The notes beneath the pieces are model-generated. The model saw nothing but the letters and a program-made list of their open reading frames with translations, had not been told where the DNA came from and did not search any database. A stretch of DNA of 64,000 nt from SAR324 cluster bacterium (GTDB taxonomy: Bacteria > SAR324 > NAC60-12): contig JACNJW010000044.1 in the NCBI GenBank assembly GCA_014382365.1, positions 7,368 through 71,367 on the forward strand, given 5' to 3'. Position numbers and translations under genes: made by a program. Below, one piece after another: positions 48,099-61,714 of the stretch (position 1 is its first letter; each line of letters starts with the position of its first letter).

Positions 48099-48746
48099 AT
48101 GCTTAAAATACGGATTCCACATTTTATTCTGTTGACTATTGTACTGTTCACTACAGTTGTTATAGGCAATATTCTTGCTCTGCCCCCTGTTGCTGAGGCG
48201 GCCGGATTTATGGGGCATAAAAAGAAAAAGGGCTGTACCAAGTGCCATAAACAACAATATAAATCTTGGAAAAAGATGCGCCACGCCAAGGCGATGAAAA
48301 CCTTGATGCCCGGAGAATTTGCCGAAGAAAAAATAAAGGCTAAACTTGATCCGGATAAGAATTACATCAAGGATAAAAAATGTTTGAAATGCCACACCAC
48401 CGGACTCGACAAAGGCGGGTATTCTGTTGGGAACAAAAAAAAGATGAGAAGTTTCTATGCCGTTGGTTGCGAGGAGTGTCATGGGAAAGGGAAGAAATAT
48501 CAGAAGGTGAAGAATAAATACGAACAAGATGACTTTCCTCGCGATGAGGTCATTAAGGCCGGGATGAAATACGGGGAAAAGGAGGTCTGCGAAAAATGCC
48601 ATAATGATGACAGTCCTTTCAATGCCGCACTTGATCCCAAATATGCGTTTGATTACAAAAAAATGCTCAAAAAAGGAACACATAAACATTTCCGGCTGAA
48701 AAAGCATTCTCCCCGTAAGGGAAGTGAATGGTTATATGAGGATTAA
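48099..48746 (+). CDS. Periplasmic tetrahaem cytochrome c, lysine-rich
   Basis: Signal peptide (ALPPVAEA-AG). Four CxxCH motifs (CTKCH, CLKCH, CEECH, CEKCH). 43 Lys in 215 aa by my count. Confidence 0.85.
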   Translation: MLKIRIPHFILLTIVLFTTVVIGNILALPPVAEAAGFMGHKKKKGCTKCHKQQYKSWKKMRHAKAMKTLMPGEFAEEKIKAKLDPDKNYIKDKKCLKCHTTGLDKGGYSVGNKKKMRSFYAVGCEECHGKGKKYQKVKNKYEQDDFPRDEVIKAGMKYGEKEVCEKCHNDDSPFNAALDPKYAFDYKKMLKKGTHKHFRLKKHSPRKGSEWLYED

Positions 48747-48852: not shown

Positions 48853-49506
48853 ATGGCTAAGAAAATAAAGTATGCAATGGTGATTGACATCAACCGTTGC
48901 ATTGGTTGCAAGGCCTGCATGACTTCATGCAAGGCTGAAAACGAAGTGCCCCTGGGGGTTTTCCGGAATCACGTACGTGAACTGGAGAAGGGGATTTATC
49001 CCAATATGAAGAAAATTTTTCTTCCGGTTTTGTGCAATCAGTGCGATAAACCGGCCTGTAAAGCGGCACTTCCAGAAGGATATGAAGATGCTATTACCAA
49101 ACGTGATGACGGCATTGTTGTTTGGGATGAAGCCAAATGCAAAGGCAAAGTAGCCGAAGCGGCGATCGAGGGTTGTCCGTACAGTAATCCCTATATGCAC
49201 CCACAAAAGAATGTTTTCCAAAAATGCGATTACTGTGCGCATCGTGTGGATGCCGGATTGCAACCCGCCTGCGTGGCGACCTGCATCGGCGGGGCAAGGA
49301 TTTTTGGCGATGTCAATGATTCGACCAGCGATGTTTTCAAATATATGGCAACTCACTCGACTCATGTTCTAAAACCGGAGGAAGGTACTGAGCCAAACAC
49401 ATATTATGTGGCTTTGGATAGAATAACTGCCGAACGGCTGGAAGGTTCACAACAATTGCCTCCCACGGATGCTACTGAAATTGCAGTTGAAAACTTCAGC
49501 GGTTAA
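48853..49506 (+). CDS. Fe-S (beta) subunit of the molybdopterin oxidoreductase; apparently a 3-cluster variant, no signal peptide
   Basis: CIGCKACMTSC, CNQCDKPAC..LP, C-x11-CP and CDYC..C...C. AGGAG RBS. Confidence 0.8.
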   Translation: MAKKIKYAMVIDINRCIGCKACMTSCKAENEVPLGVFRNHVRELEKGIYPNMKKIFLPVLCNQCDKPACKAALPEGYEDAITKRDDGIVVWDEAKCKGKVAEAAIEGCPYSNPYMHPQKNVFQKCDYCAHRVDAGLQPACVATCIGGARIFGDVNDSTSDVFKYMATHSTHVLKPEEGTEPNTYYVALDRITAERLEGSQQLPPTDATEIAVENFSG

Positions 49507-49542: not shown

Positions 49543-52164
49543 ATGCAACTTAAACGAAGAAAATTTATCCAATTGGGAAGTGCCGCAGGTGCGGCATTGA
49601 CCGTTGGTAGCCAATTTGGCATGAAGGCTAAGGCGTCGGCATTGATGGAGTTGAAGCAAACTGGCAGTGCTTCTCCAACGGGAAAGAAAAATCAGGAAAT
49701 TCCTTACACTTGCCTGACTTGTAATATTGAGGACGGCGGAATCGCCTATGTCGAAGACGGCAGAATCCGCAGACTGGAGGGCAATCCCAATCATCCGGGA
49801 AATCGCGGGAAACTCTGTGCAAAAGGTAACGCCGGACATTTGCACGTCTATGATCCAACCCGAATTTTGAATCCGTTGAAACGGGTCGGCCCCAGAGGTA
49901 GCGGCAAGTGGAAGCGCATTACTTGGGACGAAGCCTTGAGCGAAGTCGCCGGAAAAATTCAGGGTGCGATGGACATTGATCCGATGTCCGTCATGTTTCA
50001 GTACGGACGCAACCGGACTCACGGTCTCGTTTATCGCTTTATGAATGCGCTGGGTTCCGGAACAGTGAATAATCACACCTCAATTTGCGAGTGCAATAAA
50101 AAAGTGGCTATGGAACACGCTTGGGGGCCGGACATCGAAACGCCTGACTTTGCGCACACTAAGTACATCCTCAACTTTGGCAGTAACTTGGCGGAAGCCG
50201 CTTATTTCCATAATCCTTACATCCAAAGACTGATGGACGGAAAAATAGAGAACAAGGCCAAACTTGTTACTTTTGATCCGCGTATGACCAACACGGGTGC
50301 AATCAGCGATGAGTGGATTCCCTTGAAGCCTGCAACCGATGGAGTTGTCGCCTTGGCAATGTGCAATGTAATTTTGCAGGAAGGACTGGCGGATACAGAA
50401 TTTATCCGCAAGTACACTAATGTTACGGCGCATCAGTTGACCGAACATCTCAAGCAATACACTCCGGAATTTGCCGAAAAGGAAAGTGGGGTTTCTGCGG
50501 ACACCATTCGCCGAATTGCGATTGAATTTGCAACCGCCGGCCCGGCCACGACTTACACTTATCGCGGCAGTTCCATGCACCAAAACGGTGTTTATACGGA
50601 GAAAGCCACGATGATGCTCAATGTTGTCACCGGAAATATTGAGAAACGTGGCGGCTTCAATTTGCCGCGCGGCTTAGGTTTTGGCGGCGGACCGGGACCG
50701 CATCCGCCCAAACCGCCTCACAGCATTCTGAAGTATCCACCGGAATATCCGTTAGCCAGTCATCATGTTTCTCACCATGTTTCTCATTCCATTTTGGAAG
50801 GACGGCAGAAGATCAATGTCTTTATGCTTTATTGTCATAATCCGCTCTATACTCAACCGGACGGAGACACTTGGAAACAAATTTTAACGAGTGAAAAGCA
50901 CATTCCTTACTCTGTTTCTTTCAGCATCAATATGGATGATTCGACGAAGTATGCCGACATCATCTTGCCGGATACGACTTTCTTGGAGCGTTGGGATCCG
51001 GAATCAATGCCATCCTCAGCTCTAGGCTGGGTCGGTTTGCGACAACCGGTTATTAAGCCTCTCGGTAATGCCAAAGCTTTCCGGGATACGATTTATGAAC
51101 TGGCGCAAAAAATCGACCCCGACGGTAAACGCGGTGTCAAGAAGTATTTCAGTTACGGTTCGGCGGAAAGCTATGTTAAAAATCAGCTTGAAGCAACTCC
51201 GGGACTGAAAGCCGCAGGTGGATTTAAGCTCCTCAAAAAATATGGAGTTTGGCCTTTTTATGATAAGAAAAAGGAGGATAACTTCAAGTTCGGCGCACAC
51301 GAGGAAACACTCAGCGAGAGTGATTTGGCCGGAACAACTTTGGAGGGACGTACTTTGATGAAAGGCGGAAAGTCTGTCGGTTTAATGGTGGACGGAAAAG
51401 CTGTTCGAGGTTTCGGCACTCCTTCACGCACTTTCCAAGTCAATGTTCCTGAGTGGGAGCATTACGGTTTTGAACCGATGCCACATTATGAAGCGATTGA
51501 GGATCATAAGCGGATGAAGTCTGATGAACTGTTGTTGAGTACATACAAGCCCAATGTTCATACTCAATCCCGTACTCCAAATCTCAAGTGGTTACAGGAG
51601 CTTCACCATCGTAATCCTGCTTGGATCAACACCGAAACCGCAAAAGCTCGCGGAATCGGAAACGATGATTTGATCAGAATAACAAGTCCAATCGGCTACA
51701 TGGTCACAAAGGCTCGGGTTACAGAGGGCATTCACCCCCAAGTAGTGGCCATCGCCACTTCCAGCGGTATGTCAAACAAGTCTACTTTGGGCAATTACGG
51801 CGGCTCCAAAGACCCGGATATTGTGCAGAATACCTGGTGGGATGATACCGGTGTCCATCCAAACCAAATAATTCCTGTCAGTACTGACCCCATCGGTGGC
51901 GGTATGGGCTGGTTTGACACGGTGATCACCGTTACCAAAGCCAAATCCGGCGATAAATACGGAGACACGCGTTCCGATCGGGGAGCAGCACGGAAAGCCT
52001 TTGAGAAGGCACTTTCCAAAGCTACCAAAGTTCGAACTGAAGATGCGCATAACACTACAGCTAAAACCAATGTTCGTGACGAAATACATACGGAGGTTGG
52101 AGGTGTTTTTGGCACAACAGCAAAACTTCGTGATTTTGAAGACCCGTTCAATACCACTGCTTAG
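49543..52164 (+). CDS. Tat-exported Mo/W-bis(pyranopterin guanine dinucleotide) oxidoreductase catalytic subunit, Psr/Phs/Ttr/Arr-like branch, substrate unknown
   Basis: Twin-arginine signal KRRKFIQLGSAAGA. FS0 region C57-x2-C60-x3-D64-x27-C92. Probable Mo-ligand context NHTSIC. Molybdopterin-binding pattern throughout. AAGGAGA RBS. Confidence 0.85.
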   Translation: MQLKRRKFIQLGSAAGAALTVGSQFGMKAKASALMELKQTGSASPTGKKNQEIPYTCLTCNIEDGGIAYVEDGRIRRLEGNPNHPGNRGKLCAKGNAGHLHVYDPTRILNPLKRVGPRGSGKWKRITWDEALSEVAGKIQGAMDIDPMSVMFQYGRNRTHGLVYRFMNALGSGTVNNHTSICECNKKVAMEHAWGPDIETPDFAHTKYILNFGSNLAEAAYFHNPYIQRLMDGKIENKAKLVTFDPRMTNTGAISDEWIPLKPATDGVVALAMCNVILQEGLADTEFIRKYTNVTAHQLTEHLKQYTPEFAEKESGVSADTIRRIAIEFATAGPATTYTYRGSSMHQNGVYTEKATMMLNVVTGNIEKRGGFNLPRGLGFGGGPGPHPPKPPHSILKYPPEYPLASHHVSHHVSHSILEGRQKINVFMLYCHNPLYTQPDGDTWKQILTSEKHIPYSVSFSINMDDSTKYADIILPDTTFLERWDPESMPSSALGWVGLRQPVIKPLGNAKAFRDTIYELAQKIDPDGKRGVKKYFSYGSAESYVKNQLEATPGLKAAGGFKLLKKYGVWPFYDKKKEDNFKFGAHEETLSESDLAGTTLEGRTLMKGGKSVGLMVDGKAVRGFGTPSRTFQVNVPEWEHYGFEPMPHYEAIEDHKRMKSDELLLSTYKPNVHTQSRTPNLKWLQELHHRNPAWINTETAKARGIGNDDLIRITSPIGYMVTKARVTEGIHPQVVAIATSSGMSNKSTLGNYGGSKDPDIVQNTWWDDTGVHPNQIIPVSTDPIGGGMGWFDTVITVTKAKSGDKYGDTRSDRGAARKAFEKALSKATKVRTEDAHNTTAKTNVRDEIHTEVGGVFGTTAKLRDFEDPFNTTA

Positions 52165-52296
52165 GCCGGTGTTGTATATTTTTGATTGAGCCGTATGCTC
52201 CTGCTCTCTTGGGGAGAATGCGGTTTAATCTTGAAGTCAAACTTTTGGTGTGTGTTCAATTTATTGCTCCCTACATTTTCCAATCATCATTTTCCA

Positions 52297-52995
52297 ATGT
52301 CATCATCCAAACAAGTCAATGTAAGGCCAACTTCGACAGAAATGGCGGAAAGCGGGCCTTGCGAAGCAGAAAATCGTGCCAATGTTTATGAGTTTCTTTC
52401 ACGGATTTTTTTGGAAGAAATGGATTCCGGTTTACTGCAAGCTCTGCAATCGGACGAGGTGGCGGGAATATTTCTGGATTGGGGAATCAATTTTCAAGAA
52501 GATTTGGCCGGAGAAAACCAAAACGAAATTTTAGAACAATTAGCTCATGCCTATTGCGACACTTTTGTAACTGGCGAAGATCCGGTTTTTTCTCCGTATG
52601 AATCAGTCTGGAAAACAGGTTGTCTTGAGGGCAAGTCAACTTTACTTGTTGAAGAATTCTATACAAAATGTTCGCTGGGGCTTCCAAAAAACTGTCCGGA
52701 ATTTGCGGATCATTTGGGAATCGAATTTGATTTAATGAGCCGACTTGCAAAAAAAGAGGCTGAATTTCGGCTTGCCGCTCAAACTGCACAAGCAGAAAAT
52801 TATCACAAGTTTCAACAGGCTTTTCTCAAAAATCATCTTTTAGCTTGGGGTCCCGAATTTTCGGCAAAAATAGAACGCTGGGCTTCCCATCCTTTTTATC
52901 AACATATCGGTAAATTAAGCTGTGAATTCCTCAGAATGGAGGCGGAAGAATTTGAGTTGGAAAGCGAACCTTACATGGAATTTTCAGAAAACTGA
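52297..52995 (+). CDS. TorD/DmsD-family redox-enzyme maturation chaperone
   Basis: ANVYEFLSRIFLEE, SPYESVW and ADHLGIEFDLMSRL. Start uncertain (52186, 52297 or 52342). Confidence 0.7.
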   Translation: MSSSKQVNVRPTSTEMAESGPCEAENRANVYEFLSRIFLEEMDSGLLQALQSDEVAGIFLDWGINFQEDLAGENQNEILEQLAHAYCDTFVTGEDPVFSPYESVWKTGCLEGKSTLLVEEFYTKCSLGLPKNCPEFADHLGIEFDLMSRLAKKEAEFRLAAQTAQAENYHKFQQAFLKNHLLAWGPEFSAKIERWASHPFYQHIGKLSCEFLRMEAEEFELESEPYMEFSEN

Positions 52996-58050: not shown

Positions 58051-58929
58051 ATGGCCAAAGTCTTTGTTAAAAATAAGAAATGTTGCCGTTTCAGTATTTT
58101 GGTTTTTTTACTGTTTCTGAATCTTGTTTTTTCCGGACAACTTATAGGGGCGGAATCAGCAGTACGCTTCGGATTGACTCCTGTCATTTTAGATAATCAG
58201 AGAGATTTTCTGGAAAATTGGCAAAAATTTCTGGAGAAACATTTAGAGCGTCCCGTCATTTTTATTCAACGGCGTACCTACGGTGAAATTACGGAAATGT
58301 TACTTCAAGAACAATTGGATATTGCTTGGATTTGCGGGCGTCCTTATGTGCAACATCAACAAAAATTGCAACTGCTGGCTGTACCGCTTTATCGAGGAAA
58401 GCCGCTCTACCAATCATATTTGATTGCCTTAAGCGACAACACTAAGATAGATTCAATCTTAGACTTGAAAGGGAAGGTGTTCGCCTATTCTGATCCGGAC
58501 TCCAACTCTGGTCATTTGGTCCCCAATGTCATGTTGAGTAGAGTAGGCAAAGATCCAAAAACATTTTTTGCTAAAACTTTTTTCACTTGGTCGCATAGGG
58601 ATGTTGTTTCAGCGGTTGCTTCTGGATTGGCGCAAGGCGGTGCGGTGGACGGCTATGTTTGGGAAACACTCAATCTTGTACATCCTGAATTGACCCAACG
58701 TACCCGGATATTGAACCGTTCTCAAAAATTCGGTTTTCCGCCGTTGGTTGCTCGCCCTTCTCTACCGAAAAATGAATTGTTACTTATACAGTCCGCATTG
58801 CTTCAAATGAACAAAGACCCAAACGGAATTCAACTTTTGCAAAAATTAAATCTGGACGGGTTTGTTGAGGGTGATGACGCTTTATTTGACGGCATCCGCG
58901 AATCTTTGCTTTTTTTAACGGGCTACTGA
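58051..58929 (+). CDS. PhnD-fold periplasmic binding protein, probable ligand sensor partner of the kinase (AioX/ArxX-like role)
   Basis: Signal peptide. VRFGLTPV...DIAWICG...YSDPDSNSGHL...GGAVDGYVWE is the phosphonate-bd fold pattern. No ABC permease or ATPase is adjacent; a histidine kinase starts 4 nt after its stop. Confidence 0.7.
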   Translation: MAKVFVKNKKCCRFSILVFLLFLNLVFSGQLIGAESAVRFGLTPVILDNQRDFLENWQKFLEKHLERPVIFIQRRTYGEITEMLLQEQLDIAWICGRPYVQHQQKLQLLAVPLYRGKPLYQSYLIALSDNTKIDSILDLKGKVFAYSDPDSNSGHLVPNVMLSRVGKDPKTFFAKTFFTWSHRDVVSAVASGLAQGGAVDGYVWETLNLVHPELTQRTRILNRSQKFGFPPLVARPSLPKNELLLIQSALLQMNKDPNGIQLLQKLNLDGFVEGDDALFDGIRESLLFLTGY

Positions 58930-58933
58930 AACG

Positions 58934-60370
58934 ATGTTCCGGAATGTTTCCTACCACTACAAAATCCCACTGAGTTTCAGTGTTGTCATAATATTGACTG
59001 GAATGATTGTTACCACAGCGTTGGTTTGGCAGACGTATGAAAATTTACGCCGCGATATCTTCCGGAACGCTGTTGAAGTGGGAGCCGCTTTGTCTGGAAC
59101 CTTGCAATTATCCATAAAACATGATGATGTCTGGAGAGCTTATCGTTTGCTAGCGGACACCGGACAGGCAGCCGATAGAGACGGCGGATTACTCTTGGTA
59201 GTACTCGACGAAGAATACAAAGTTTTTGCCTCCAACCAGCCTCGACAATTTCCCGTATTGGCTTCTTTGGAAAATCTCAGTCCGGAGTTTGCCGGTTTGA
59301 ATAAATCGCTACTGCAAAACAATAATAATGAAGCCCGTCCGATTGTACAAGGTGCAACTTTGTGGATGTACGTAGTGCACCCAATCCACGAATACGGGAC
59401 AAGGTTGGGAGTGTTATTGATAGGCTACGCCCATTCGCAATTTTTACCAAGATATTATGAAATTGTTTGGAATGTCAGCATCTCGTCTTTGGGGGTGATG
59501 TTAATTTTGTTGCCTTTAGGATGGTATTTGGGCAAAAATATGGCAGAACCTTTGGTAGAACTTTCAAATTGTATGGAGATGGTCGGTCAAATTCCGCCGG
59601 ATGAAATTGAATACAATTTGAAAGAAGCCGACGATGAAATCGGTTTGTTGAGTACACGTTTTAGGGAAATGCTGGAAGATTTGCGAGTCAAACAGCAATT
59701 CGAGCGGCAAGTATTGGTTTCCGAACGTTTAGCGGCAATCGGTCGAATGTCGGCGGGAGTTGCTCACGAAATTAATAATCCTCTGGGTGGAATGCTCAAT
59801 GCTATCAATACTTTCAAGCAACACAGACATGAAGAGGGTGTGCCGGAAAAAACCCTTTACTTACTGGAGCGTGGATTAGGGCAAATTCAAGAAACAGTTT
59901 CGGCTTTACTGGTGGAGAGTATCCCGGAAAGCCATCCTTTGAGTTTTCAAGATGTTGAGGATATCCGGACCTTACTTCATGCAGACATTAATAAAAAGAA
60001 CATCAACTTAGTTTGGGAAAATAATTTGGTAATACCGGCCTTACTACCTTCGACTCAAATTAGGCAAATTTTAATGAATCTTTGTCTAAATGCGCTTCAA
60101 GCCGCACCGGAAGAGAGTACTGTTTTTTGCAAAGTTTGTGCTGTAGAAGAAGAAAATTTATTGATTGAGGTGCGTAATGAGGGTGGAGATCTGGACGATG
60201 AAACCATGGAATTGCTGTTTGAACCTTTTGCCCACCAAAATTCCGGCGGTATCGGTTTAGGGTTATGGGTTACTTATCAAATCGTCCGTCAACTCGGAGG
60301 AGAAATTGTTGTTAAAAATCAAGATGGAACCGTCTCATTCTCGGTAGGCATTCCTCTGAGAAACTCCTAA
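58934..60370 (+). CDS. Sensor histidine kinase (2 TM, periplasmic domain, HAMP, HisKA, HATPase_c)
   Basis: H-box SAGVAHEINNPL. N, G1 and G2 boxes (LMNLCLNALQA, NEGGDLD, GGIGLGLW). Confidence 0.85.
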   Translation: MFRNVSYHYKIPLSFSVVIILTGMIVTTALVWQTYENLRRDIFRNAVEVGAALSGTLQLSIKHDDVWRAYRLLADTGQAADRDGGLLLVVLDEEYKVFASNQPRQFPVLASLENLSPEFAGLNKSLLQNNNNEARPIVQGATLWMYVVHPIHEYGTRLGVLLIGYAHSQFLPRYYEIVWNVSISSLGVMLILLPLGWYLGKNMAEPLVELSNCMEMVGQIPPDEIEYNLKEADDEIGLLSTRFREMLEDLRVKQQFERQVLVSERLAAIGRMSAGVAHEINNPLGGMLNAINTFKQHRHEEGVPEKTLYLLERGLGQIQETVSALLVESIPESHPLSFQDVEDIRTLLHADINKKNINLVWENNLVIPALLPSTQIRQILMNLCLNALQAAPEESTVFCKVCAVEEENLLIEVRNEGGDLDDETMELLFEPFAHQNSGGIGLGLWVTYQIVRQLGGEIVVKNQDGTVSFSVGIPLRNS

Positions 60371-60382
60371 AACGTAATTATT

Positions 60383-61714
60383 ATGGTGCATATTTGTTTG
60401 GTTGAAGACGACCCCATCATGGGGGAATCGCTGGCGCATCGTTTCGCACTTGAACGCTTAACCTGTCATTGGTTTCAAGATGCGCGTAGTGCTTTGGAGG
60501 CAGTTAAAACAGAACATTATTCCGTGTTGATCAGTGATATTCGTCTTCCGGATATGGATGGGGAAAGCCTGTTCAAATCACTCATTGAACTCGGTGAACC
60601 ACCACCGCCGACATTGTTCATTACCGGTTATGGTGCTATTGATCAAGCGATACGCCTACTAAAACTGGGAGCACAGGACTACATTACCAAACCCTTTGAT
60701 CTGGATTTACTTTTGAGTAAATTGCGGAGCTTGAGTCCGGGGTTGTTTCCAAAAAAAGATGAACAGCCGCTGGAATTAATTTTGGGTATTTCCGAGCAAT
60801 TGCAAAAAATCCAACGGATGTTGAGCAATTTAGGAAAGCATGATGTCGGTGTTTTGTTCACCGGTGAATCCGGAGTCGGCAAAGAATATGCGGCCCGTTA
60901 TCTACATGACTGCTCCGGAGACAAAGGCAACCGACCTTTCATCGCCACCAATTGCGCCGCCATTCCGGAAAGTCTGTTGGAAACCGAACTGTTCGGACAC
61001 GAAAAAGGGGCATTTACTGGCGCCATACACATGCGGCGGGGTGTTTTCGAACAAGCCAATAACGGGACTCTTTTTTTAGATGAAATCGGCGATATGCCCT
61101 TGTCCATGCAAGTTAAACTGTTGCGGGCCATCCAAGAGCGTTCAATCTGTAGAGTCGGCGGAGAAAAAATGATCCCCATCAATTTGCGTCTCATCAGTGC
61201 GACAAATCATGACCCAATAGCTTTGGTGGAAAACGGAAAATTTCGGGAAGATTTGTTCTATCGCATCAATATCATTCATATCCACATCCCACCACTGCGG
61301 GAACGTCAAGAGGACATTCTTTGGTTTTCAAAAAAGTTTATGGAACTCTGCACACGTGAACAAGGTGAACGGCGGGTATTGACTCGGAGCGGAGAACAGT
61401 ATTTGTTCGATCAACCTTGGAAAGGCAACCTTCGGGAACTGAAGCATTGCATCCAACGTGCTTGTATCCTTTCCGGACAAGAAACAATAGGAGCCTCGGA
61501 ATTAGATGTGTATGGCGTTGAGCTTACCTCCACTAAAGAACAGGCGGTTGCAGATTTAAAAAGCTATTTGGAAGTTTGCGAACAACGACGCATCCTGCAA
61601 ATGTTGGAGAAATATAAATGGCGCATCGGGGACACTGCCGCCACTCTGGGAATCAGTCGTAAAAATTTATGGGAAAAAATGAAAAAATATGATATTTCTA
61701 ACCACGGTCACTGA
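60383..61714 (+). CDS. Sigma-54-dependent response regulator (NtrC/AioR class: REC-AAA+-Fis HTH)
   Basis: REC domain (LISDIRLPDMDG), GESGVGKE, GAFTGA sigma-54 contact loop, C-terminal HTH (TAATLGISRKNLWEKMKKY). Confidence 0.9.
   Translation: MVHICLVEDDPIMGESLAHRFALERLTCHWFQDARSALEAVKTEHYSVLISDIRLPDMDGESLFKSLIELGEPPPPTLFITGYGAIDQAIRLLKLGAQDYITKPFDLDLLLSKLRSLSPGLFPKKDEQPLELILGISEQLQKIQRMLSNLGKHDVGVLFTGESGVGKEYAARYLHDCSGDKGNRPFIATNCAAIPESLLETELFGHEKGAFTGAIHMRRGVFEQANNGTLFLDEIGDMPLSMQVKLLRAIQERSICRVGGEKMIPINLRLISATNHDPIALVENGKFREDLFYRINIIHIHIPPLRERQEDILWFSKKFMELCTREQGERRVLTRSGEQYLFDQPWKGNLRELKHCIQRACILSGQETIGASELDVYGVELTSTKEQAVADLKSYLEVCEQRRILQMLEKYKWRIGDTAATLGISRKNLWEKMKKYDISNHGH

Follow-up and report, generated by a model that had tools for sequence, protein, structure and literature searches.

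Enzymes of the molybdenum/tungsten bis-pyranopterin guanine dinucleotide (Mo/W-bisPGD; DMSO reductase) superfamily contain an iron-sulfur cluster, FS0, which forms the gate between the molybdenum (Mo) site and the electron wire. The ligands of FS0 classify the superfamily: type I enzymes have four cysteines, type II enzymes have a histidine and three cysteines, and type III enzymes have none. It was stated that all Arr, Unk and Psr sequences carry the motif C-X2-C-X3-C-X27-C (Duval et al. 2008, PMC2500031). A crystal structure of the nitrite oxidoreductase (NXR) subunit NXR-A of Kuenenia stuttgartiensis (PDB 7B04) revealed a [4Fe-4S] FS0 bound by C67, D71, C75 and C115 (Chicano et al. 2021, PMC8387239). 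The FS0 aspartate in NXR sequences had been noted before this structure, and the authors proposed that ligation by Asp or His tunes the FS0 potential (PMC8387239). Our study concerns a stretch of 64,000 nucleotides from a SAR324 cluster bacterium (assembly GCA_014382365.1, contig JACNJW010000044.1, positions 7,368 to 71,367 of the forward strand), hereafter called the window. A gene at 49543..52164 encodes the catalytic (alpha) subunit of a Mo/W-bisPGD oxidoreductase, P0001 (873 amino acids), in which an aspartate, D64, occupies the place of the third FS0 cysteine. Coordinates are those of the window, and all window features mentioned lie on its + strand.

NXR-A and P0001 belong to the same superfamily, and in both of them one of the four ligand positions of the cluster near the proximal pterin is an aspartate that is conserved in the lineage. 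Yet NXR-A is of type II: its Mo carries Asp, and in its motif C-x3-D-x3-C...C the aspartate is the second ligand, whereas P0001 is of type I, with Cys on Mo and Asp in third place. The FS0 of P0001 works like the NXR site, but P0001 is no member of that family. An earlier sequence-only reading of the window, made by a model from the letters alone, took His (Nar) or a missing ligand (Aio) as the only known variants of the motif and was not aware of an Asp at this position. The first part falls with the Asp-ligated FS0 of NXR-A, and the chemistry of such ligation is already known. The second part holds in narrower form: the literature searched contained no type I, Cys-Mo enzyme of the Psr/Arr kind with Asp as its third FS0 ligand, and mentioned neither a repeated Cys/Asp exchange there nor its presence throughout a large, unassigned, arsenic-linked clade.

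Aspartate at the third FS0 position

The aspartate of P0001 is real, conserved and under purifying selection. Nucleotides 49711-49737 read tgc ctg act tgt aat att gag gac ggc and translate to C57-L-T-C60-N-I-E-D64-G65, which gives the spacing C57-x2-C60-x3-D64-G-x27-C92. This retains the spacing of the four-cysteine type I motif C-x2-C-x3-C-x27-C, with Asp as the third residue. In the HMMER register, D64 (gac, 49732..49734) stands opposite the third FS0 cysteine of T. thermophilus PsrA (2vpw, C-E-G-C-F-W-R-C-G), S. oneidensis FdhA (9vap) and Shewanella ArrA (6cz7, C-Q-G-C-T-S-W-C-A), and G65 stands opposite the glycine after this cysteine in PsrA and FdhA. The other ligand positions agree with this register: C57 (49711..49713) lies opposite the first cysteine of PsrA and ArrA, C60 (49720..49722) opposite the second, and C92 (49816..49818, in C-A-K-G) opposite the fourth cysteine of PsrA. 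The sequence-only reading had described the same coordinates, codons and spacing, and all of them were confirmed.

That reading had also allowed for an offset motif in which a nearby cysteine serves as third ligand, and for a codon misread in the assembly. Neither is borne out. All 121 nearest database homologues (at least 50% identity) read C-x2-C-N-[IVM]-[EQ]-D-G, and the only invariant cysteines in this alignment are 57, 60, 92 and 182 (C57 and C60 in 121/121), so that there is no hidden cysteine able to replace D64. Public data contain this stretch of DNA in 20 runs, which belong to 7 marine or seawater studies. Four runs, each from a different study, gave contigs in which codon 49732-49734 was unchanged (GAC); two of these runs are metatranscriptome libraries. 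One of the four is a strain variant with 96.6% identity (20 differences over 590 bases), in which the variant closest to the D64 codon is a silent C>T at 49737, in the next codon. Independent metagenome-assembled genomes (MAGs) at 96%, 89% and 71% identity have Asp in the same column. Separately, seawater metatranscriptomes of two studies include contigs with positions 49543-50142, which hints at expression in the ocean, with carry-over of DNA as another possibility.

A wider survey scanned one genome per species, which yielded 317 genomes with relatives, and the best 80 loci were examined. Asp occupied the third ligand position in 79 of the 79 readable loci. Together with the 121 homologues, this count excludes chance as the origin of the residue. 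In the clade of P0001 (clade 1), the aspartate is encoded by GAC in 65 cases and by GAT in 15, and this use of both synonymous codons indicates that selection acts on the amino acid. Across two large lineages, column 64 never contains E, N, S or A. The residue follows clades, a possibility that the sequence-only reading had raised. Elsewhere in the genome, further molybdoenzymes keep the usual four cysteines: one is Psr-like (C-E-L-C-F-W-R-C-G), one Arr/Arx-like (C-Q-G-C-T-T-W-C-P) and one Fdh-like.

P0001 is exported by the Tat route and forms the catalytic subunit of a periplasmic Mo (or W) bis-pyranopterin enzyme of the Psr/Phs/Ttr/Arr type that is so far uncharacterised. Its open reading frame is preceded by a good Shine-Dalgarno sequence, and the three domains of the superfamily all score above the Pfam gathering threshold (PF04879, 37 bits; PF00384, 128 bits; PF01568, 63 bits). 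The translation starts with a signal peptide in which the twin-arginine (Tat) motif R5-R6-K-F-I-Q-L-G (49555..49578) is followed by a hydrophobic stretch, and R5, R6 and F8 are invariant in the homologue alignment (A1). The predicted Mo ligand is C182 (50086..50088, in H-T-S-I-C), which lies opposite S-L-C of PsrA and S-V-C of ArrA; it is invariant in 121/121 homologues and would provide the Cys-on-Mo arrangement of type I enzymes. An AlphaFold2 (AF2) model reached a predicted template modelling score (pTM) of 0.82, with a predicted local distance difference test score (pLDDT) of about 75 around FS0. Its best fold matches were PsrA (2vpw) and ArrA (6cz7), which were equally good (E 2e-46).

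P0001 reached no NCBIfam equivalog cut-off. It scored 367.9 bits against PhsA (NF012032, cut-off 694), 188.9 bits against ArrA (NF041714, cut-off 1600), 169 bits against QrcB (NF041783, cut-off 440), 111 bits against TtrA (NF011567, cut-off 1750) and 25.9 bits against AioA (TIGR02693, cut-off 359). Other features point the same way. The gene orders arrAB and arxB2ABCD are absent, and the B-C-A order looked for with TtrA occurs in relatives but not in the window. The Mo cysteine and three FS0 cysteines are invariant, unlike in QrcB, and P0001 pairs with a ferredoxin-type beta subunit instead of the Rieske protein of AioA. The x2/x3 spacing and the Cys at the Mo-ligand place differ from the type II pattern of NXR and Nar ([H/C]-x3-[C/D]-x3-C, with Asp on Mo), and NarG and NXR match P0001 only weakly (for instance, 7b04_B with E 3e-5 over about 110 residues). 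Database names of clade members are generic, such as 'molybdopterin-dependent oxidoreductase'.

Among the described enzymes, PsrA/PhsA gives the best match in sequence and fold. P0001 shares with it Tat export, the Cys Mo ligand, the x2/x3/x27 spacing and a beta subunit of the four-cluster type, and relatives of P0001 have an NrfD anchor as well. PsrA differs in its four FS0 cysteines, its A-B-C gene order, in contrast to B-C-A in the relatives of P0001, and its sulfur rather than arsenic context. ArrA (Shewanella ANA-3, 6CZ7) equals PsrA as a fold match, but has Cys at the third ligand. The arx clusters resemble those of the relatives in a divergently transcribed sensor system, arxXSR. Their order is arxB2ABCD (PMC6549141), in contrast to cytochrome c-B-A-D in the window and B-C-A-D in relatives. 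AioA, too, deviates from the four-cysteine FS0, and an AioX-type sensor controls it, but it lacks the fourth ligand (Ser) and has a Rieske partner.

A further comparison is with the branches that Duval et al. called 'Unk', found in Azoarcus EbN1 and Dechloromonas RCB, with B-C-A order and unknown function (Duval et al. 2008, PMC2500031). The genomes with members of our clade include Aromatoleum buckelii, Azoarcus sp. KH32C and a Dechloromonas MAG. These members resemble the 'Unk' branches in the B-C-A order, the Tat signal on A and the betaproteobacterial hosts, and differ in that the 'Unk' sequences were stated to have four cysteines (PMC2500031). Both betaproteobacterial 'Unk' branches are probably part of the Asp clade.

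Cysteine/aspartate exchange and the state of the cluster

Cys and Asp have repeatedly replaced each other among close relatives of the same architecture, as judged from trees that were all built with the motif columns removed. The family sample comprised the best 150 of 14,746 matches, taken as representatives of 50%-identity clusters. Cys dominated the third-ligand column of the readable representatives; about ten clusters had Asp, two had Ser and one had Thr. P0001 belongs to a fully supported clade in which all members that still have the FS0 motif carry Asp, and separate Asp lineages are represented by P0156/P0184, P0193, P0149 and P0226. At least four Cys/Asp changes were needed on an IQ-TREE tree of 42 rows, and at least 4-5 exchanges across the motif-free trees, each requiring two base changes. 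The approximately unbiased (AU) test rejected a single clade of all Asp rows (difference in log-likelihood 370, p = 9e-5), for a group that was named after the tree had been seen. In view of the repeated exchanges and this rejection, Cys and Asp look interchangeable at the third FS0 ligand. The direction of change, gain or reversal, is not readable from the trees.

A second lineage (clade 2), sampled from metagenomes and with the motif C-W-Q-C-V-[TSA]-R-[D/C], repeats this pattern. Its 78 rows divide into 38 with Asp and 40 with Cys; its basal branches have Asp and it requires at least three exchanges. The following residue differs between the two types in clade 2 (L081-L160): position 65 is Pro after Cys (32/40 rows), and Asp is followed by Gly, Ser or Ala. 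Position 88 is R, N or K with Asp and mostly E with Cys. We draw no conclusion on charge compensation from position 88, because R88 is the family consensus, occurs also in the Cys-type PsrA, and the pattern comprises only about three independent transitions. Genes for AioX-like sensors lie beside Asp-type loci (L082, L108, L128, L149, L156) and Cys-type loci (L106, L116, L157) alike; the residue does not track the sensor in clade 2, where most contigs are too short to judge.

The same sample contained several other departures from the canonical motif. P0206 has Asp at the first FS0 ligand (D-x2-C-x3-C-G), P0202 and P0208 form a supported pair with Ser at the third, and P0214 represents the Thr cluster. 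Nested in the Asp clade, P0133, P0139, P0141, P0164 and P0270 have lost all FS0 cysteines and the Mo-ligand cysteine. Others (P0125, P0193, P0128) have kept FS0, with Gly at the Mo-ligand place. All of them look like derivatives poor in cofactors, similar to QrcB/ActB, yet none reaches the QrcB cut-off.

We lean towards the explanation that FS0 of P0001 is a [4Fe-4S] cubane with three Cys ligands and one Asp ligand and an altered potential. The cubane would be held by C57, C60, C92 and the carboxylate of D64, which would bind the fourth iron, and it would pass electrons between the pterin and the wire of the beta subunit. The oxygen ligand would alter the potential and spin state of FS0, and possibly its pH dependence and the lability of one iron. 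Several observations argue for this arrangement. D64 sits in the exact ligand column and the small residue after it is kept; the replacement is always Asp in two large lineages; Cys and Asp have proved interchangeable over evolution; and NXR-A offers a solved example within the superfamily. The occurrence of Cys-type and Asp-type close relatives with the same architecture fits one cluster type with alternative ligands. The maturation chaperone, Mo ligand and Tat signal are all intact. A small protein shows comparable chemistry: the ferredoxin of P. furiosus binds a [4Fe-4S] cluster by three Cys and one Asp, interconverts easily between 4Fe and 3Fe forms, and shows a modest shift in potential relative to its all-Cys variant, Asp ligation raising the potential by some tens of mV compared to D14C. 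This ferredoxin differs from FS0 in its size, its C-x2-D-x2-C motif and its unrelated fold.

Other considerations count against Asp ligation. The closest solved chain, PsrA, has only 23% identity with P0001, and the AF2 model contains no cofactors. The NXR precedent concerns another ligand position in a type II enzyme. Moreover, an invariant Asp is also compatible with a residue that stands next to a [3Fe-4S] cluster without binding iron, and in A. vinelandii ferredoxin I, Asp15 is indeed a non-ligating proton relay by such a cluster. Sequence alone cannot separate the two cluster types. The binding of iron by D64, and the direction and size of the shift in potential, are what we infer from the patterns described above.

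The alternative that survives best is that FS0 would be a [3Fe-4S] cluster on C57, C60 and C92, with D64 as a hydrogen-bond or proton-relay partner. By analogy to the arsenite oxidase Aio, such a cluster would have a much higher potential and might suit an oxidising enzyme. This would be in line with the mere three invariant cluster cysteines, with the AioX-type arsenite sensor at 62 of 80 clade loci, with the cytochrome c partner in the window, which suits an oxidase, and with the [3Fe-4S] FS0 of Aio, a known arsenite oxidase. It also agrees with C-to-S/A mutants in the Cys group of DmsA, which assemble [3Fe-4S] clusters, and with Asp-bearing ferredoxin sites, which interconvert 3Fe and 4Fe forms. 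However, close relatives that share one architecture would then have to alternate again and again between 4Fe and 3Fe clusters, whose potentials differ by hundreds of mV, and for this reason we rate it about half as likely as Asp-ligated [4Fe-4S]. Furthermore, the replacement is always Asp in two big lineages, whereas natural 3Fe sites of the superfamily use Ser (Aio) or Trp (FS4 of NarH/DmsB) where the ligand is missing, and the sole solved Asp-bearing FS0, that of NXR, is a 4Fe cluster. Overall, we consider a [3Fe-4S] cluster possible but rather unlikely.

It is improbable that D64 belongs to the second sphere and that another group supplies the fourth ligand, be it water or hydroxide, one of the invariant histidines (for instance H84) or part of the beta subunit. 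Candidate histidines are available, since H84, H178, H346, H407 and H689 are invariant in the clade. Yet D64 stands precisely in the ligand column, the Gly after it is conserved, and H84 belongs to a P-x-H-P stretch that is also present in Cys-type relatives, so that it does not track the aspartate. Very improbably, the aspartate is a sign of decay towards a pseudo-enzyme subunit without cofactors, as in QrcB/ActB. The nested lineages that lost the Mo-ligand Cys (P0125) or both FS0 and Mo Cys (P0133, P0139, P0141, P0164, P0270) and the partial QrcB match of 169 bits would be in favour of such decay, but this score is far below the cut-off of 440, a TorD-type cofactor chaperone gene adjoins, and the three cysteines, the aspartate and the Mo cysteine are invariant in P0001 and its 120 nearest homologues. 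The chance that a sequencing or assembly error conceals a true Cys codon is negligible, given GAC in four runs from four studies, the MAGs with Asp, and the two base changes that would be needed.

Gene neighbourhood and a probable arsenic link

In the window, the gene order is multihaem cytochrome c, iron-sulfur subunit, A, TorD-type, rhodanese, polyferredoxin, a cytochrome c/Fe-S/NrfD module and the X-S-R genes. In most relatives the order is X-S-R (divergent), B, NrfD anchor, A and TorD, as seen in Aromatoleum buckelii and on plasmid pAZKH. The iron-sulfur (beta) subunit (48853..49506, PF13247) has no signal peptide of its own, and its best NCBIfam match is TtrB (181 bits, below the cut-off). 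A homologue lies upstream of A in 77 of the 80 related loci. The TorD/NarJ-family maturation chaperone (52186..52995, PF02613, NCBIfam TorD) has counterparts after A in 47 of the 80 loci.

The multihaem cytochrome c (48099..48746, PF13435 and PF14522) occurs only in the closest relatives, at 6 of the 80 loci, and is the probable redox partner in a soluble version of the enzyme. In the beta subunit of the window, group II is short of its fourth Cys (L-P for C-P) and group III of its second and third. In relatives with the NrfD anchor, the B subunit has 236 amino acids. From these missing residues, the beta subunit of the window appears to miss one of the four usual clusters. Such a reduced set fits a soluble enzyme that gives electrons to the adjacent cytochrome c.

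The X-S-R genes (58051..61714) encode an AioX-type binding protein, a histidine kinase and a sigma-54 activator. The X protein matched the arsenite-binding AioX (PDB 6esv) with 1.7e-67, far better than ArrX (3.5e-42) or PtxB, and X is the only AioX-type sensor gene in the genome. Homologues of X are present at 62 of the 80 related loci, and ars genes lie within 10 kb at 10 of the 80. For instance, on pAZKH of Azoarcus sp. KH32C an arsC-arsD-arsA-ACR3 operon directly adjoins the clade cluster. In view of the conserved AioX-type sensor and the neighbouring ars genes, the substrate of P0001 is probably an arsenic oxyanion, used either in arsenite oxidation or in arsenate reduction. The pAZKH locus (L161; NC_020548.1, 51392-67822) lies on a mobilizable 738-kb plasmid on which the ars operon, X-S-R and B-C-A-TorD-polyferredoxin stand side by side, and its presence in a cultured strain makes it a ready genetic system.

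The SAR324 genome contains separate genes for the two described types of arsenic molybdoenzyme. An AioA-like gene scored 434 bits against TIGR02693, above the cut-off of 359, a model that the iodate reductase IdrA would also match. An Arr/Arx-like gene with the motif C-Q-G-C-T-T-W-C scored 1123 bits against the ArrA model, below the cut-off of 1600. The score of the Arr/Arx-like gene shows that the enzyme in the window is neither of them. These two candidate arsenic molybdoenzymes lie at L166 and L168 (G000:C67:104654-106072 and G000:C67:77037-78386). The 'candidate alternative arsenite oxidase' of Thioalkalivibrio was rejected as a member of the P0001 clade; it is a Tat-less, Soe-like enzyme.

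Implications for the enzyme family

A large type I lineage with three cysteines and an aspartate, together with repeated Cys/Asp swaps, means that the textbook motif is incomplete. Annotation by a motif that demands four cysteines would mis-score the Asp-type enzymes. The natural Cys/Asp pairs are ready material for studying how a single ligand tunes a cluster.

We tentatively suggest that an Asp-type FS0 might characterise a hitherto unrecognised family of respiratory arsenic enzymes, the third next to Aio and Arr/Arx, whose members would most likely oxidise arsenite. Possibly, the toggling between Cys and Asp would then act as a dial for the potential of the entry/exit cluster, and hence for the catalytic direction. 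The enzymes of this clade are widespread in Proteobacteria that metabolise sulfur, iron and nitrate and in marine bacteria, and they are linked to arsenite sensors. Cultivable strains with a clade member are Azoarcus sp. KH32C, Aromatoleum buckelii U120, Thauera aminoaromatica S2, Sedimenticola selenatireducens DSM 17993 and Hydrogenophilus thermoluteolus. The enzymes may be an overlooked part of the arsenic cycle.

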